Shown here one piece after another: positions 47,289 through 53,593 of a stretch of DNA of 64,000 bases. Under the pieces are notes generated by a model. That model did not search any database. It saw only the letters and a program-made list of their open reading frames with translations, and was not told where the DNA came from. Source of the DNA: an uncultured Gemmatimonadales bacterium. GTDB taxonomy: Bacteria; Gemmatimonadota; Gemmatimonadetes; Gemmatimonadales; GWC2-71-9. The first letter of the stretch is position 1, and each line of letters starts with the position of its first letter. The stretch is taken from positions 64,001 to 128,000 of the forward strand of contig CAWGED010000004.1 in NCBI GenBank assembly GCA_963821525.1. The letters are read 5' to 3'. The translations under genes and the position numbers were made by a program.

Positions 47289-47364
47289 GGTCTCCGTAAC
47301 CGATTCGGGAACTGGCGCCGCGCGCTTGCGGCGCTCCCTACCTCATGATAACATGCTCACTCGG

Positions 47365-47488
47365 GACTCAGCCGGGTCGCTGGCTCAGGTGGAGCCTGGG
47401 TCGCCTTGTCGAGGGAGGCAGTAGCCTCCGAGTCGAAGGCACGAATGAGCTGTCCGCCTCCGCGGAGAGTTTCGTTCGGGCCTTTTTT
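47365..47488 (+). ncRNA. Candidate cis-regulatory leader RNA, copy A (with terminator)
   Basis: CCTTGTCGAG-GGAGGC/GCCTCC-GAGTCGAAGGC...GCCTTTTTT. Confidence 0.7.
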
Positions 47489-47526
47489 CATTTCCGGCTA
47501 TTCCGTCGCACCAATCAGGGGGTCGA

Positions 47527-50502
47527 ATGGACGATGCACTGAAGCCACAATCGCACGGCTTCGATGCTGATGCCTTGGTACCCGACAGCCGAGCCCGGTG
47601 GGCGGGTCGAGTAGCGGGTTGGCTGCTCCTCCTCCTGGGCGCGACCGGAGCTCTCGGTCTCCTTCCAGGACTGCAATTTCTCAAGCAACCGGTCACCGGC
47701 TTCTCCCCGCTTTCGCTAGTCACCGGCCTGAGCCTTTGCGCCCTCGGCGCGGGCCTTGGTGGCGCTGGTCAGCGGCAAGCGGACGGCTGGCGCTCTGGGC
47801 GCCGCCGGGGCCGTGCTCGTCGCCGCACTGGCAGTCACTCAATATCTCCTCGGGGTCGATCTCGGGATCAATCCCGTCGCAGGCGGAGCGCGGCGGCGAG
47901 CGGGTTGAGCTCGTCGGTTCGGGTGTCGATCGCCAGCGCGATGCTCCTCGGACTGGCAGGCGCCGGCCTTATCACTCTCGCTTCACCGATCTCCCCGCAT
48001 CGCGGGAGACTCTTCGCCGGTGGATTCGGTTGTGTGGTGGTGGCCTTCGCCCTCGGCATTCTGCTTACAACAGGCATCTGGAATCTCGAGCAACAGGCGG
48101 GGCTTCTGGCCGGCTCCTCATTTCAGACGCTGATCGGCTCGCTGATCGGAGGCTCCTGCCTGGTGTTCATCGCCTGGAGCGCCGATCCCACCGCAGCACG
48201 CTCGGCGTATTGGCTACCGGTATCGGTGGGCGCGGGATGCCTCGTCACCGCGATCTTCCTCTGGCGCGCCCTCATCATCTACGAAGACGATCGGGTCCGC
48301 GGCCAGGCGACGATCGCGGCGCGAACCGCGAGGCGAGAGATCTATGGCCAGGTCCAGACCGGCACCCGGCTCCTGAGCCGCATTGCACGGTTCAGCTCGC
48401 CTCCCCGGCCCCAGTCGCCCAACTGGTCAAGCAGCATGGTGGCGATCACTCGCGATATCGACGGGCTCCTCGCAATCGCGTGGACCGATTCGACCGCGAA
48501 GGTCACCTACGTAGCACCTCCCACCGCCGATGCCGACACGTTGCGCTCCCAATTGCAGCGGGGACTGGAGGCGGCACTCGGTGGAACCCCGCCGGCATCT
48601 TGGCATTCCGCCACGATGTATTTCGGCATCGGGCCCGAGGGACAGACCTTCGCGGCTGCCGTACCTATCTGTGTACCCGCCGGCTGCAGCGGCTATGTGC
48701 TTGGCGTCTTCGACGCCGCGAGCCTGCTGGAGCCGGTGTTGGACAACCCAGGTGAGGGATACGCCTTTACCATCCTGACGTCGAGGGGCGCGAGCCTCCT
48801 CACCTCGCGCGAGCCGCCTGCCGGTGCCCGGAATCTCATGGACCGGTCCTCATTCAAGCTCGGCGATCTCAACTGGCAGCTTCAGGTCGGCGCCACACGA
48901 GAGACACTGCAGCGGCTCCGTTCGAAGCTTCCCGATCTGCTTCTGCTGGCAGGCCTGCTGGTCACCGCTCTCCTGCCGCTCACCGTGCGGCTGGCCCAGA
49001 TGACCTGGTCGCGCGCCCGCCTGGTGGAAAGAGTTCGCCTCAATCTCGCCCTGGAAACGGCAACCGACGGAATCTGGGAGTGGGACGTGCCGAGCGGTGC
49101 CGCGATCCGGAGTGCGACACTCTGGCGCCATCTGGGGTATGGCCCGACCGAGTTTCCGGCCAAGATCGACAGCTGGATGTCTCTCATTAACCCGGACGAT
49201 CGCGCCGCGGTGCAGGCGGCGATGGCGGCGCACCTCGCGGGCAAGACCGAAAGCTTCGAAGCGGAATACCGGATCCGGGACCATCTCGGCGGCTGGCATT
49301 GGGTCATCGATCGAGGCAGGGTCGTCGAACGAGCGCCCAGTGGCGTGCCGCTTCGGGTGCTGGGTATCAGCGCCGACGTTACCGAGCGGAAACGGACCGA
49401 CGAGGCGCTCGAGGCAAGCGAGCGGAGGTTCAGGGCCTGCTTCGACAGCGCTTACCAGCTGCAGAAGCTGCTCGACCTCGATGGGCGAGTGCTGGAGGCG
49501 AATCGCACCGCGCTGGACTTCTCCCGTACGACGATCGAGCAGTTGCGCGGCGTGCCGCTCTGGGATACCGAGATCTGGCTGAACAGTCCCACCAGCCGCG
49601 AAGCCTTGCGCGCCGCATTCGCCGAGGCGTGCAAAGGGAAGACAGTGAGGCAGGAGATGGAGCTGGACGCCGGCGAGGGACGCCACGCCATCATCGATTT
49701 TTCGCTGACCCCGATCATGGATACGGAAGGCAGGGTGGTTCAGCTCCTCGCCGAGGGGAGAGACATCACGGCCAGCAGGCAGGCCGAAGACCAGCTGCGC
49801 GAGGTCGAGTCGCTCTCGACCATGGGCCGGCTCGCGGCGCGCGTCGCGCACGAGATCAATAATCCGTTGGCCGGCATTCAGAATTCTTTCCTTCTCATCA
49901 AGGACGCGGTCCCCGAGGATCACCCGCATCACAGTTACGTGGGCGCCATCGAGCGAGAGATCGGCCGGATTGCCGGGGTAACCCGCCAGCTGTATGAGAC
50001 CTACCGCCCTGACTCCGACGGCGCGCGTGAGACATCCATACCGAACCTGGTTGGCGACGCGGTGGCGCTCCTCGGCCAGGTCAACCGCGATGCGCGGGTA
50101 ACGATCAAGGTGGACTTGCAGCGGGCACCCCACGTCGTACAGCTTCCCGATGCCCTGCTCCGCCAGGCGGTCTACAATCTGGTGCAGAACGCGGTAGAGG
50201 CATCCCCAAAGGGGGGAACGGTTTGGGTCACCGCGGCAGGAGAGGATGGCGTCTTCGAGCTGCGGGTCAAAGACAACGGACCCGGCATCCCGCAGGAGAT
50301 TCGAGAGCGAATTTTCGAGCCGTTTTTCACGACCAAGCCATCCAGCACCAGGACCGGTGGCATGGGTCTCGGTCTCTCGCTGGTCCGCCGCTCGGTCCAC
50401 GCGCTGGGCGGTCAGGTAGAAATTATTGACGTTCCTGGAGGCGGCACGGAGTTCGTGGTCCGGTTGCCCCTCGGGACCCGACATGCAGGAGCAATCTCAT
50501 GA
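47527..50502 (+). CDS. Membrane PAS-PAS sensor histidine kinase (probable local frameshifts ~47760-47900)
   Basis: TM segments, periplasmic domain, DGIWEWD PAS, second [24 protein letters not shown]. Confidence 0.9.
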
Positions 50503-51230
50503 CGATGCGCGGCAGGATCCTCCTTGCCGACGATGAAGAGACCTTCCTCAGTTCTACTGCGGATCTTCTTCGAAAAGAAGGCTTCGAGTGCGATACGGTC
50601 CAGGATGGCGTGAGCGCACTGGCTCGGGCGTCGGAGAATAACTACGACCTCCTGGTCACCGATCTGGAGATGCCCGGGAACGCCGATCTCTCCCTGATCC
50701 GGCAGATCACGTCCGCGAGAGGTGGCCTGCCCGTGATGGTTATTACCGGAGTCCCGTCGCTCCGCTCGGCTATGGCCTGCGTGGAACTGCCGGTCGCGGC
50801 CTACCTGGTCAAGCCGGTGGTTTTTTCCGACTTGCTGCCGCGGATCCAAACCGCGGTCACCCGGTTCCGTTCCTATCAGGCCATGCAGAGCGCGGAGCAG
50901 CGGTTGCAGGAATGGCGCAAGGAGCTGAAGACCCTGTCCGGGCCGGAAGGCAACTCGGCGTCCCCCACGGCGGGAATCGATGTGTTCCTGTCGCTTACGC
51001 TGCGAAACGTGATGGGATCGCTTACCGACCTGGAGCAGCTGGGACGCGCCCTGGCGGGTCAGCCGGTAGGACAGCACCCATGTCAGCTGCTGAATTGTCC
51101 CCGGGGAGCCCAGCTCCAGGAGGCGGTTCGGGAGACGATTCGGGTCCTTGAGGAGACTAAAAACGCCTTCAAGTCCAAAGCACTCGGGGAGTTGCGCCAG
51201 AGATTGGAGCTGCTGCTCGAGCACAATTGA
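50499..51230 (+). CDS. Response regulator with unrecognised helical output domain
   Basis: LLADDE, VTDLEMPG, ITG, YLVKP; I recognise no HTH in the C-terminus. Confidence 0.88.
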   Translation: MTMRGRILLADDEETFLSSTADLLRKEGFECDTVQDGVSALARASENNYDLLVTDLEMPGNADLSLIRQITSARGGLPVMVITGVPSLRSAMACVELPVAAYLVKPVVFSDLLPRIQTAVTRFRSYQAMQSAEQRLQEWRKELKTLSGPEGNSASPTAGIDVFLSLTLRNVMGSLTDLEQLGRALAGQPVGQHPCQLLNCPRGAQLQEAVRETIRVLEETKNAFKSKALGELRQRLELLLEHN

Positions 51231-51327
51231 GGTTTAGGTCTGTTGTCTAAAGGCTTAGATCTACCTGTGACAATGGTCACTTGCGCGAATAGGGCAATTT
51301 TCTTAACATAGGCCCGCAGCCAAAATC

Positions 51328-51429
51328 GGCGGGGATTGGAATCCTGCCACCTTGTCGGATGAGGCCTCGGCCTCATCAGTCGAAGGCGCGAACGACCCTC
51401 CTCGAGAGGTCGCCGCGCCTTTTGTGTTT
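51328..51429 (+). ncRNA. Candidate leader RNA, copy B
   Basis: hairpin-A-CCTTGTCG-GATGAGGC/GCCTCATC-AGTCGAAGGCGCG...CGCGCCTTTTGTGTTT. Confidence 0.7.
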
Positions 51430-51517
51430 CCCGGCTGCTGCAGTCATAGATCGTATTACCGGTCACCACGCTCGGCCGGGCCTGACCCCGGCCGAGTGCG
51501 GTAACCATCAGCGGAAG

Positions 51518-51611
51518 CCTTGTCGAGCGGAGCGAAAGAGGCTTTGCGAGTCGAAGGCGCGGGATGACCGCTCTCCATGGGGAGATGCGCGAATCCGCGC
51601 CTTCGTTCGTT
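51518..51611 (+). ncRNA. Candidate leader RNA, copy C (tandem with B)
   Basis: CCTTGTCGA-GCGGAGC/GCTTTGC-GAGTCGAAGGCGCGG...CCGCGCCTTCGTT. Confidence 0.68.
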
Positions 51612-51652
51612 CCGGTACCCGCGAGGCACGAAGCAGTAAGGGTTGGGGTTCG

Positions 51653-51862
51653 ATGAATCTGGATACGGTAGAAGGGCAGTGGACACGCCTGAGAGGAAAG
51701 ATCCTTGAGCAATGGGGTCGGCTGACCGCGGACGAGATTTCGATTGTCGCGGGCCGGCGTGACCAGCTCATCGGCATGCTCCAGCGGCGCTACGGAGTGG
51801 CGCGGGCGGAGCTGGAGCGCCAAGTGGAGGATTTCGAACGCAGGGTTCTGGCCGGCCGCTGA
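51653..51862 (+). CDS. csbD: CsbD/YjbJ family stress protein
   Basis: MNLDTVEGQWTRLRGKILEQWGRLTADE...GRRDQLIGMLQRRYG. Confidence 0.88.
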   Translation: MNLDTVEGQWTRLRGKILEQWGRLTADEISIVAGRRDQLIGMLQRRYGVARAELERQVEDFERRVLAGR

Positions 51863-51888
51863 GTCCGCGAGCCGCAAGAGGAGGGACT

Positions 51889-52104
51889 ATGCTGCGTTGG
51901 GCGATGGGTCTGCTCGTGGTCGCGCTGGTGACGACGATGTTCGGCGCAGGCGGGATCTTTTTCGCGACCGAGGCGTTGCGAACGCTGTTCTACCTCTTTG
52001 TTGTCGTCCTCCTGGCAACCATTCTGCCAGTGCTCGTTTCCGATCGCCGTAACATGGATGAATACCGCAGAGACCGCCGCACACGTGCCGCGAGTCGCGC
52101 CTGA
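51889..52104 (+). CDS. DUF1328 (YtjA)-like small membrane protein
   Basis: MLRWAMGLLVVALV..FGAGGI...LFYLFVVVLL. Confidence 0.75.
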   Translation: MLRWAMGLLVVALVTTMFGAGGIFFATEALRTLFYLFVVVLLATILPVLVSDRRNMDEYRRDRRTRAASRA

Positions 52105-52140
52105 GCGGTGGCATGCTCTGAGATCTCATAGGAGAGAGAA

Positions 52141-52807
52141 ATGCCGCTCGTTTCGATGAAGGACCTGCTCCTGTTCGCCTTGAAGGATCTGCACAGCGCG
52201 GAGACACAGTTGGCGAGGACTCTGCCCGCCATGATCAAAGGCTCGGGCGCTCCGAGCCTGCGTCGCGCGCTGAATCATCACCTTCGGCGGACCGAGGAGC
52301 ACGTGGACCGTTTGCAGGTCATCTGCGAGGCCCTCGAAACCTTCCCCGGCGGCCAGCGCTGCCGCGGCATGGAAGGGATGATCGAGGAAGTACGCACCGT
52401 CCTTCGCTCCATCGGAACCCAAAGCGTGGTTGATGCCGCCATCATCGCCGTGGCCCAGCGCATCTCCCATTACGAGATTGCCGCTTACGCAGTGCGCCAG
52501 GACCTATGCCGCCATGCTCGGACTGGACGACATCGCCGATCTGCTGGCGATGAGTCTCCAGGAAGAGGAAGCGGTGGAGACCGAGCTCACAGATATCGCG
52601 AACGAAGAAGTGAATGATCGGGCCCTCGTTGGGATGACGGAGTCAGAGCACTTGAGCCCGCTCGAAAACTTTCTGGACCCCGCAGGACGCCTGCCACATC
52701 GAAGGGAATCGGCACCGAAACCGGTGCCGGTTTCCCTCCCACCTCGATCGGGAGAGATGAGCAGGAATGGTGTGACAGTTGCCACATCCGGTCCAGGGAC
52801 ATGCTGA
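52141..52807 (+). CDS. DUF892/YciF ferritin-like protein, frameshift near 52495
   Basis: LKDLHSAETQL; CRGMEGMIEE; AQRISHYEIAAY; SLQEEEAV. Confidence 0.85.
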
Positions 52808-52830
52808 TAGGTTGACTTTACGGATCGATA

Positions 52831-52932
52831 GGACGGGCTGACGGTTGTCCGTCCACCTTGTCGGATGGGGTTGAGCCCCATCAGGTGAAGGCGCGCTGAG
52901 CTGAAATTCAGGCTCTCGCGCCTTCGCTGCTT
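52831..52932 (+). ncRNA. Candidate leader RNA, copy D
   Basis: GGACGGGC/GTCCGTCC-A-CCTTGTCG-GATGGGG/CCCCATC-AGGTGAAGGCGCG...CGCGCCTT. Confidence 0.68.
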
Positions 52933-52975
52933 CCGGTCTCGATGGCGCACTCTGGCATCGCGAGTGGAGGATTGA

Positions 52976-53593
52976 ATGTCGATCAAACGTCTACTTCGCG
53001 TCCTCGCATTCGGCCTCATGCTCGCCGGACTCGCGACGATTATTCCGTCCCGGGTCCACGCTCAGAATAGTCATGAAAGCAGCACCAGTCTGGGCGTCTG
53101 GGCCGCGATGTCCGCGCCGCTGGGCTCGGATCGCAGTGCAAGCTTGATCGGTACCAGCATCAACCGGCGCAACAGTTTTGCCGGCGGTGCCCGGCTCACG
53201 TTCTGGGGCACCAATATCCTGGGTGTTGAGGCAGTCGCCGGATTGACGCCGGCCAAAGTGGTGGCCGGAGCCAACATTAACGAGACCCGCAGCCTCGACG
53301 TCTTCGCCGGTGGGGTCAAGCTGATGGTCGGGTTGAGTCCCAGCATGTCGCCGGTAGGATTTCACGTGGGCGCGGGTCCCGCGATCGTACGTCGCGGTCA
53401 CTACGGCCTCGACCAATCGACTAGTAAGACGAACTTGGGCGGCCTCTTTGGAGCGGGCTTCAGGTTCCCTATTAACCAGACACTTGGGTTCCGGCTGGAC
53501 GTGGAAGACTACGTATACAACGCTTCGATCGAAGGCAAAGGGAAAACCCAAAATGATCTTATCACTTCGGCCGGCCTGACAATCAAATTCTGA
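52976..53593 (+). CDS. Outer-membrane beta-barrel (OmpA/OmpW-like, 8-stranded)
   Basis: Signal peptide, alternating beta strands, C-terminal Phe. Confidence 0.8.
   Translation: MSIKRLLRVLAFGLMLAGLATIIPSRVHAQNSHESSTSLGVWAAMSAPLGSDRSASLIGTSINRRNSFAGGARLTFWGTNILGVEAVAGLTPAKVVAGANINETRSLDVFAGGVKLMVGLSPSMSPVGFHVGAGPAIVRRGHYGLDQSTSKTNLGGLFGAGFRFPINQTLGFRLDVEDYVYNASIEGKGKTQNDLITSAGLTIKF

Follow-up and report, generated by a model that had tools for sequence, protein, structure and literature searches.

A window of 64,000 nt from an uncultured Gemmatimonadales bacterium (contig CAWGED010000004.1, positions 64,001 to 128,000; the whole stretch of DNA that was analysed) contains four repeats, A to D, that are copies of a real, previously undescribed family of leader RNAs. 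We propose that this RNA is probably the site of a kinase-activated, RNA-binding antiterminator and that the binder is the C-terminal domain (CTD) of a neighbouring response regulator. The computed base of this proposal consists of a conserved hairpin, a mutually exclusive terminator, the position of the RNA in 5′ leaders, its linkage to the CTD and an intact phosphorylation site in the regulator. A first-pass annotation of the window, made from its letters, had described the four copies as a riboswitch or a protein-dependent attenuator; our results support this description and, of the two options, favour the attenuator. The regulator, encoded at 50499-51230, had not been connected with the RNA in that annotation and is the candidate partner.

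The coordinates and the + strand assigned earlier to the four copies were borne out. The octamer CCTTGTCG, which had been called invariant, turned out to vary within the RNA family (CCTTGGCG, CCTGGTCG, CCTTGACG and others), and by itself it is modestly enriched (8 occurrences in the window vs 2.5 expected). The whole RNA descriptor gave 11 matches in the 4.3-Mb genome and 0 in the reversed genome; a covariance model trained on the 11 genome copies recovered the same 11 and none besides in a search of this genome. Four of these copies are clustered within 5.5 kb, while the other seven are located on other contigs, away from the regulator gene. Folding of the four copy regions beats all 200 shuffles (z −3.7 to −5.5). 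Rfam produced 0 matches in the window at gathering thresholds and, at relaxed E-values, just weak unrelated matches in the copy region and 20 other loci, in agreement with the initial failure to recognize a known riboswitch class. No description of this leader RNA was found in the open full-text literature, and term look-ups in three motif-discovery papers (PMC5737381, PMC8632094, PMC11109978) gave none in the main text either; most of their motifs are listed in supplements outside that coverage. A near-identical locus is present in named Gemmatimonadales records (L103-L105).

The element begins with an optional 5′ hairpin (P0), separated by one base from CCUU-G(U/G)CG; then follow a variable hairpin (P2), AG-N-(C/U)-G-AAGG and a long stem that shares this AAGG as its beginning and is closed by GCCUU, with a U-rich tail. 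The antiterminator is an irregular hairpin of ∼36 nt (CCUU-GNCG, variable stem, AGNYG-AAGG) whose CCUU/AAGG helix is designated P1; AAGG doubles as the base of the terminator. The four copies are composed of the following parts:

47382-47402, + strand: copy A, P0 hairpin, ending 1 nt before CCTT (folding)
47404-47439, + strand: copy A, conserved antiterminator hairpin with P1 (CCUU/AAGG), irregular loop and variable P2 (folding, alignment, covariance model)
47436-47492, + strand: copy A, predicted intrinsic terminator with U tail, before the kinase-regulator operon (folding, tail count)
51328-51348, + strand: copy B, P0 hairpin (folding)
51350-51386, + strand: copy B, antiterminator hairpin (folding, alignment, covariance model)
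51383-51430, + strand: copy B, predicted terminator with U tail (folding, tail count)
51518-51557, + strand: copy C, antiterminator hairpin, second of the B/C tandem, without a neighbouring P0 (folding, alignment, covariance model)
51554-51612, + strand: copy C, predicted terminator, weaker tail with 6 U per 10 nt (folding, tail count)
52831-52854, + strand: copy D, P0 hairpin (folding)
52856-52891, + strand: copy D, antiterminator hairpin (folding, alignment, covariance model)
52888-52933, + strand: copy D, predicted terminator, weakest tail with 5 U per 10 nt (folding, tail count)

The table agrees with two further details noticed at first pass, the extra hairpin 1 nt 5′ of CCTT (in A, B and D, absent from C) and the weak tails of C and D. 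Copies B and C are tandem attenuators; a promoter scan found no promoter-like site of copy C's own.

To characterize the pairing we aligned 76 diverse copies from this genome, its relatives, named genomes and metagenomic loci. In the terminator form two-sided changes occur at 7/7 P2 pairs, as anticipated from a hairpin whose sequence differs among the four copies while its pairing is kept, and at 5/8 terminator pairs; the covariation score of 0.50 compares with 0.23 in shuffles, and slid controls do not exceed 0.15. In the antiterminator form P1 is near-invariant (70-76 of 76 copies per pair), G8 is paired with a pyrimidine in 70/76, C11-G38 is present in 73/76 and a G12.A37 mismatch in 76/76. 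This near-invariant core of P1 and loop, with the G.A mismatch in all copies, indicates that what is conserved is a single irregular hairpin whose tip is free. In rare variants P1 and terminator have changed jointly (GCUCG/CGAGC in L310, CCUC/GAGG in L319 and CCCU/AGGG in L012), and the competition between terminator and antiterminator that had been suggested from the four copies is backed by covariation. The minimum free energy fold contains the terminator in 70 of 71 copies, with a median of 6 kcal/mol ahead of the forced antiterminator; folding of the nascent RNA favours P1 in 58 of the 71. The P0 hairpin was found in 61/75 copies vs about 22 in shuffles. RNA contigs of near relatives from soil and rhizosphere cover parts of 51342-53575 in all four runs examined (of 24 listed); two of the contigs span terminator D, and such contigs cannot show ends, strand or levels.

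The candidate partner and its kinase are encoded behind copy A:

47527-50502, + strand: membrane PAS-PAS histidine kinase (HisKA, HATPase_c), its stop overlapping the regulator start (domain search)
50499-51230, + strand: response regulator with a canonical receiver (D55), a long helix and an undescribed helical CTD; candidate antiterminator (domain and profile searches, model)
About 50862-51227, + strand: CTD of the regulator with CxxxxCPR and KxxFKSKxLxxLR (alignment, model)

In loci selected by the RNA motif the same response regulator is situated beside the RNA in Nitrospira (L080), Phycisphaerales (L072) and other Gemmatimonadota, and a histidine kinase is directly upstream of the regulator in 52/60 loci. 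The receiver has conserved D11/D12, D55, T83 and K105. The CTD, preceded by a long helix, comprises ∼120 residues, is basic and is predicted to be all-helical; it is present in a single copy in this genome and has relatives in about 600 clusters at 50% identity. The residues best kept in 102 full-length CTD sequences are C195, C200-P-R and a basic helix-loop-helix, K221-x-x-F-K-S-K-x-L-x-x-L-R233, with K or R at positions 221, 225, 227 and 233 in 93-100% of the sequences. Pfam, NCBIfam and PDB sequences gave no family match for the CTD (Pfam and NCBIfam assign to the regulator a receiver domain only), and a search with the CTD model by Foldseek and VIA-align found no clear fold relative, the best hit (Z 7.6) being to generic hairpins. 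A protein atlas search with the CTD gave one lead (0.77), an unnamed Verrucomicrobiota cluster. The homodimer prediction for the regulator scored 0.40 vs a mark of 0.42.

As an output domain the CTD is modular, occurring with a receiver, with PAS domains (P0216, P0217 and P0387) and alone. Three proteins without a receiver, in frames of 88-117 amino acids (aa), consist of the CTD only (L320, L325 and L326, e.g. L326:1315-1641 and L320:1369-1635; hhalign 97%, E 1e-10 for L320), and two of the three are also without the cysteine motif. By eye, an AT-rich Fur-box-like stretch is visible upstream of the stand-alone CTD gene of L326. In three loci RNA copies flank a regulator gene or its fragment on both sides (L192:3687-4739, with two tandem regulator paralogues, L181:597-1967 and L240:5607-6417); such an arrangement, with RNA before and after the regulator, suggests cascades.

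The linkage between RNA and CTD was observed in several samples. Among 41 relatives, the CTD is present in 8 genomes and true RNA copies in the same 8; in the other 10 pattern-positive genomes the matches are without P2 or terminator. In a pattern scan of the collection the majority of the 122 matches listed are chance matches without hairpins, and five genomes with chance matches have no CTD in them. (Variant-like matches in L042 and L123 were dropped as having no P2 stem, and the one in L062 as having no stem.) In genome samples from four phyla we then looked for both parts, the CTD by its profile and the RNA by its model. Given as both / CTD only / RNA only / neither, the counts were 16/2/1/131 in Gemmatimonadota, 6/2/0/113 in Nitrospirota, 1/1/0/148 in Planctomycetota and 3/3/0/144 in Verrucomicrobiota; in total, 571 genomes were divided into 26 with both, 8 with the CTD only, 1 with the RNA only and 536 with neither. 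Four of the eight CTD-only genomes carry a variant RNA (14-27 bits) right behind the gene (G227, G312, G557 and G559), and another, G097, has a copy that looks decayed by eye.

For a blind test we took the best 80 of 347 metagenomic loci, chosen by protein alone. The descriptor, fixed before these loci were seen, detected the RNA in 52/80 (about three of them spurious) vs 2 matches in reversed sequence. At a score of at least 30 bits the RNA model matched 53/80 loci, 45 of them in sense and at most 350 nt after the gene; 35 of the blind-test loci belonged to the training set of this model. Behind each of the three receiver-less CTD genes comes, at a distance of about 30 nt at most, a variant RNA with terminator; farther on there is a gene for a porin in a feoB locus (L320) or for a periplasmic binding protein (L326 and similarly L325). 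The variant RNA behind these genes implies that the RNA tracks the CTD and not the receiver. Finally, two genomes, G011 and G245, contain 13 and 12 RNA copies with one regulator each; since these copies are many per single regulator and 7/11 copies in our genome are on other contigs, a mere cassette of gene and RNA is disfavoured.

Taken as a protein-RNA antitermination pair, the system most likely combines a known logic, that of ANTAR/EutV and BglG RAT control, with new parts. Regulators with ANTAR domains that act on leaders, as described in the available portions of PMC3369931 and PMC12591593, are EutW/EutV of Enterococcus faecalis, PdtaS/PdtaR, AmiR and NasR; the RNA site, in the available text of PMC3369931, consists of two short hairpins with conserved six-base loops. 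Our system resembles them in having a cognate kinase, a phosphorylatable receiver with a long helix behind it, a modular output domain, a regulon of multiple sites with tandem attenuators, and an RNA site that overlaps an intrinsic terminator and is mutually exclusive with it (computed here from the common AAGG, covariation and folding energies). The regulator model aligns to EutV (6ww6/6wsh) over residues 1-150 with Z 19.5/18.5, and the alignment ends before the CTD. Unlike the dual hexaloop hairpins, the RNA described here is one hairpin with a free apical loop and stem, the loop varying in both sequence and length, and a conserved lower stem and internal loop. The ANTAR domain (PF03861) had no match in the regulator nor among the families listed for 30 CTD members, and no ANTAR chain was listed for the CTD in the fold searches made with a model of middling quality (predicted TM-score, pTM, 0.44). 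Kinship of the CTD with ANTAR was not supported by hhalign of the CTD profile with one ANTAR domain (probability 0.3%, E 0.18), nor was kinship with CsoR/RcnR (PF02583-like) by hhalign with the CsoR of this genome (probability 0.3%).

In shape, the leader RNA is matched most closely by the ribonucleic antiterminator (RAT) of BglG/SacY/LicT, a protein-stabilised stem-loop of ∼30 nt partly overlapping a terminator, as characterized in the available part of PMC12591593. Here the similarity ends: no RAT match was found in Rfam, the partner is without CAT or PRD domains, the CAT domain is beta-stranded whereas the CTD is predicted to be all-helical, and control of BglG type operates via the phosphotransferase system, with a histidine kinase in its place here.

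Under this proposal transcription would start a few tens of bases upstream of the element. By default, the AAGGC strand would pair with the downstream GCCUU, and the predicted intrinsic terminator would halt RNA polymerase. On phosphorylation of D55 by the cognate kinase, the CTD would bind the nascent irregular hairpin (CCUU-GNCG...AGNYG-AAGG), its basic helices contacting the lower stem and internal loop and keeping AAGG from the terminator, so that the genes are read. One regulator would serve 11 leaders in this genome; copy A may provide positive feedback on the kinase-regulator operon itself, and the tandem copies B and C may give tighter control. The other genes regulated in this way would be of general-stress type (two CsbD, two DUF892, DUF4397 and a PAS kinase/KaiC locus).

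In the window, copy A precedes the PAS kinase-regulator operon, B and C precede genes for CsbD, DUF1328-like and DUF892 proteins, and D precedes a gene for a beta-barrel protein:

51653-51862, + strand: CsbD-like stress protein, the nearest target downstream of B and C (PF05532 above cut-off)
51889-52104, + strand: small membrane protein, DUF1328/UPF0391-like (PRK13682 models, below cut-off)
52141-52807, + strand: DUF892 (YciF-type) ferritin-like protein with a one-base frameshift near 52491 (domain search, RNA contigs)
52976-53593, + strand: outer-membrane beta-barrel protein, target behind D (PF13505)

DUF892/YciF is a gene of general-stress type. The same is stated for CsbD in the available text of PMC11109978. 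The other copies in the genome are located before a second csbD gene accompanied by one for a low-affinity iron permease, another DUF892 gene, a DUF4397 gene, a PAS kinase gene beside kaiC, a peptidase-like gene and two unnamed small open reading frames (ORFs). In other lineages the first genes after the leader (65 of 103 guessed ORFs scanned) code for chemoreceptors, HD-GYP proteins, GvpA, NuoE-like ferredoxins, sigma54 activators, LuxR regulators, kinases and porins, and iron-uptake genes are also found among the targets. There is no metabolite or ion theme common to these targets, which are unrelated between lineages. Two associations within the target loci are worth recording. A non-cyanobacterial kaiC gene follows the gene for a PAS hybrid kinase with an RNA copy before it (L003:6705-8333, contig C12 of this genome), and three tandem paralogous genes for secreted-looking proteins of ∼175 aa are situated downstream of the csbD/iron-permease genes (L001:2723-4554, contig C5); one of these proteins was scanned and had no Pfam match, and in L278 a relative is located behind an RNA copy.

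Sense orientation 5′ of genes, claimed for the four copies, was confirmed, the copies being located just behind promoter-like sites. The scans used consensus words for promoters and CRP/FNR sites. Sigma70-like sites were found before 7/11 leaders in this genome (0.25 in shuffles) and before 10/26 copies from other Gemmatimonadota (0.5 in shuffles), and sigma28-like sites 40-90 nt before the RNA in 23/38 copies from other lineages vs 0.9 in shuffles. CRP/FNR-like sites within 3 mismatches accompany 6/11 copies in this genome vs 2.65 in shuffles; outside Gemmatimonadota CRP-like sites are not enriched (18/38 vs 14.9). A stricter stock scan for promoters and terminators listed neither these promoters nor the long bulged terminators. 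The sites identified in the window are:

47326-47354, + strand: sigma70-like promoter of leader A, TTGCGG-17-TAACAT (promoter scan; not listed by the stricter tool scan)
51266-51309, + strand: putative CRP/FNR-like site (51266-51281) and then a sigma70-like promoter (TTGCGC at 51281, TAACAT at 51304) for leaders B and C (scan with consensus words)
52771-52786, + strand: CRP/FNR-like site before leader D (scan)

In four leaders CRP/FNR-like palindromes lie ∼41-42 bases upstream of the inferred start (51266-51281 and 52771-52786 in the window, C19:325594 and C5:983590 elsewhere in the genome); it is possible that they are a second input, at initiation. Leaders with sigma28-like promoters outside Gemmatimonadota (L190, L204, L240, L246, L252, L080 and others) often precede chemoreceptor, gas-vesicle and signalling genes. 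Divergent leader pairs were seen as well, in L035:26-108 and L167:2331-2657, where two RNA copies are placed back to back on opposite strands with a short common promoter region.

A small-molecule riboswitch is an unlikely explanation, though one that would likewise tie the RNA to the protein: the kinase-regulator pair would make, degrade or otherwise set the level of a ligand, conceivably a second messenger. Cyclic-dinucleotide riboswitches have signalling-gene targets similar to the chemoreceptors, HD-GYP proteins and other signalling genes found here, and small-aptamer transcriptional riboswitches share with this RNA the 5′ leader position, conserved nucleotides in an internal loop beside the expression platform, a competing terminator and several copies per genome. 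Unlike those riboswitches, this RNA has no Rfam family match and is tightly linked to one protein domain; its lineage-specific, unrelated targets count against a metabolite as the ligand, a second-messenger theme still being allowed. Its conserved core is a single hairpin of ∼36 nt with about 15 fixed bases. The protein side argues in the same direction: the CTD, all-helical and as small as 88 aa, has no resemblance to an enzyme, the residues invariant in it are basic, stand-alone forms are without the two cysteines, and even there the RNA is directly behind the CTD gene.

Equally improbable, in our estimate, is that the CTD binds promoter DNA or RNA polymerase and that the terminator is overridden otherwise, by a host factor or by processive antitermination with P0 and the hairpin as a put-like element. 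The put RNA of phage HK022 has two hairpins one base apart, a layout seen here in the 61/75 copies with P0 one base from the hairpin, and the CRP/FNR-like sites upstream of 6/11 copies in this genome (vs 2.65 in shuffles) would fit control at the promoter. Yet the promoter types are lineage-specific (sigma70-like here, sigma28-like in 23/38 copies elsewhere), CRP-like sites lose their enrichment outside Gemmatimonadota, the RNA is the only element seen to be common to the lineages, and the CTD matches no helix-turn-helix or CsoR family.

Less probable still is a reversed direction of control: RNA binding by the protein would promote termination, or activity would reside in the unphosphorylated form. 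Sequence does not reveal the direction, most nascent transcripts already form P1 in the folding model, and soil RNA contigs span terminator D. The terminator, though, is the default fold in 70/71 copies, so that a binder would be needed to prevent it rather than to make it, and it is only in the antiterminator fold that the conserved surface is formed. A repetitive extragenic palindromic (REP)-like or mobile repeat travelling in a cassette with the regulator gene, an alternative raised already at first pass and suggested by the 4/11 copies within 5.5 kb and the patchy distribution across taxa, is very improbable and already largely refuted: stem sequences vary freely while pairing is kept, the copies read in the sense of the genes that follow them and have promoter-like sites ahead of them, and 7/11 are on other contigs, away from the regulator.

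Several observations weigh against the antiterminator proposal itself. Binding, phosphorylation, termination and read-through are deduced from sequence. The CTD model is middling, and no structural relative is known to bind RNA. The alignment filter demanded P2 and a terminator, which biases the pairing percentages upward. In the co-occurrence counts, kin genomes are not independent, for which reason Fisher tests overstate the association, 4 of the 26 both-positive genomes are centre genomes picked for having the RNA, and many RNA copies adjoin the regulator gene, so that co-transfer as a cassette accounts for part of the co-occurrence. Genome searches and a closer look found no RNA in three genomes with the CTD (G104, G167 and G494); the profile search did not find the CTD in G269 (97% complete), which has two RNA copies; and 27 of the 80 protein-selected loci have no RNA match of at least 30 bits, several of them despite 2.5-5 kb of downstream DNA, while 7 of the 27 end at most 260 nt past the gene.

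According to the available sections of PMC12591593 and PMC12471899, antiterminating response regulators all use the ANTAR domain. The domain-RNA pair described here was found in Gemmatimonadota, Nitrospirota, Verrucomicrobiota, Planctomycetota and delta-proteobacterial records, and it seems reasonably likely that response regulators have, besides ANTAR and unrelated to it, a second family of RNA-binding outputs: a modular helical domain (in receiver, PAS and stand-alone forms) that, in five or more lineages, recognizes one conserved irregular hairpin and antiterminates. A regulon of general-stress type in soil Gemmatimonadales, with up to 13 leaders, would then be controlled at termination and not via an alternative sigma factor. 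If true, this would be a new output type for two-component signalling and would offer, for Gemmatimonadota, a first concrete account of how stress genes are controlled; several hundred protein clusters now unnamed or auto-labelled 'DNA-binding' would receive a function, and their regulons would be readable straight from sequence. The parts are small (a hairpin of 36 nt and a domain of ∼90-120 aa) and, on the same premise, could make an orthogonal genetic switch.

The extra base that splits the DUF892 gene of the window (∼52491) is missing from the RNA contigs of relatives in two runs; this frameshift is probably an assembly error. Further ORFs of this genome look frameshifted, among them the N-terminal part of the kinase (about 47760-47930) and genes in L003 and L004.

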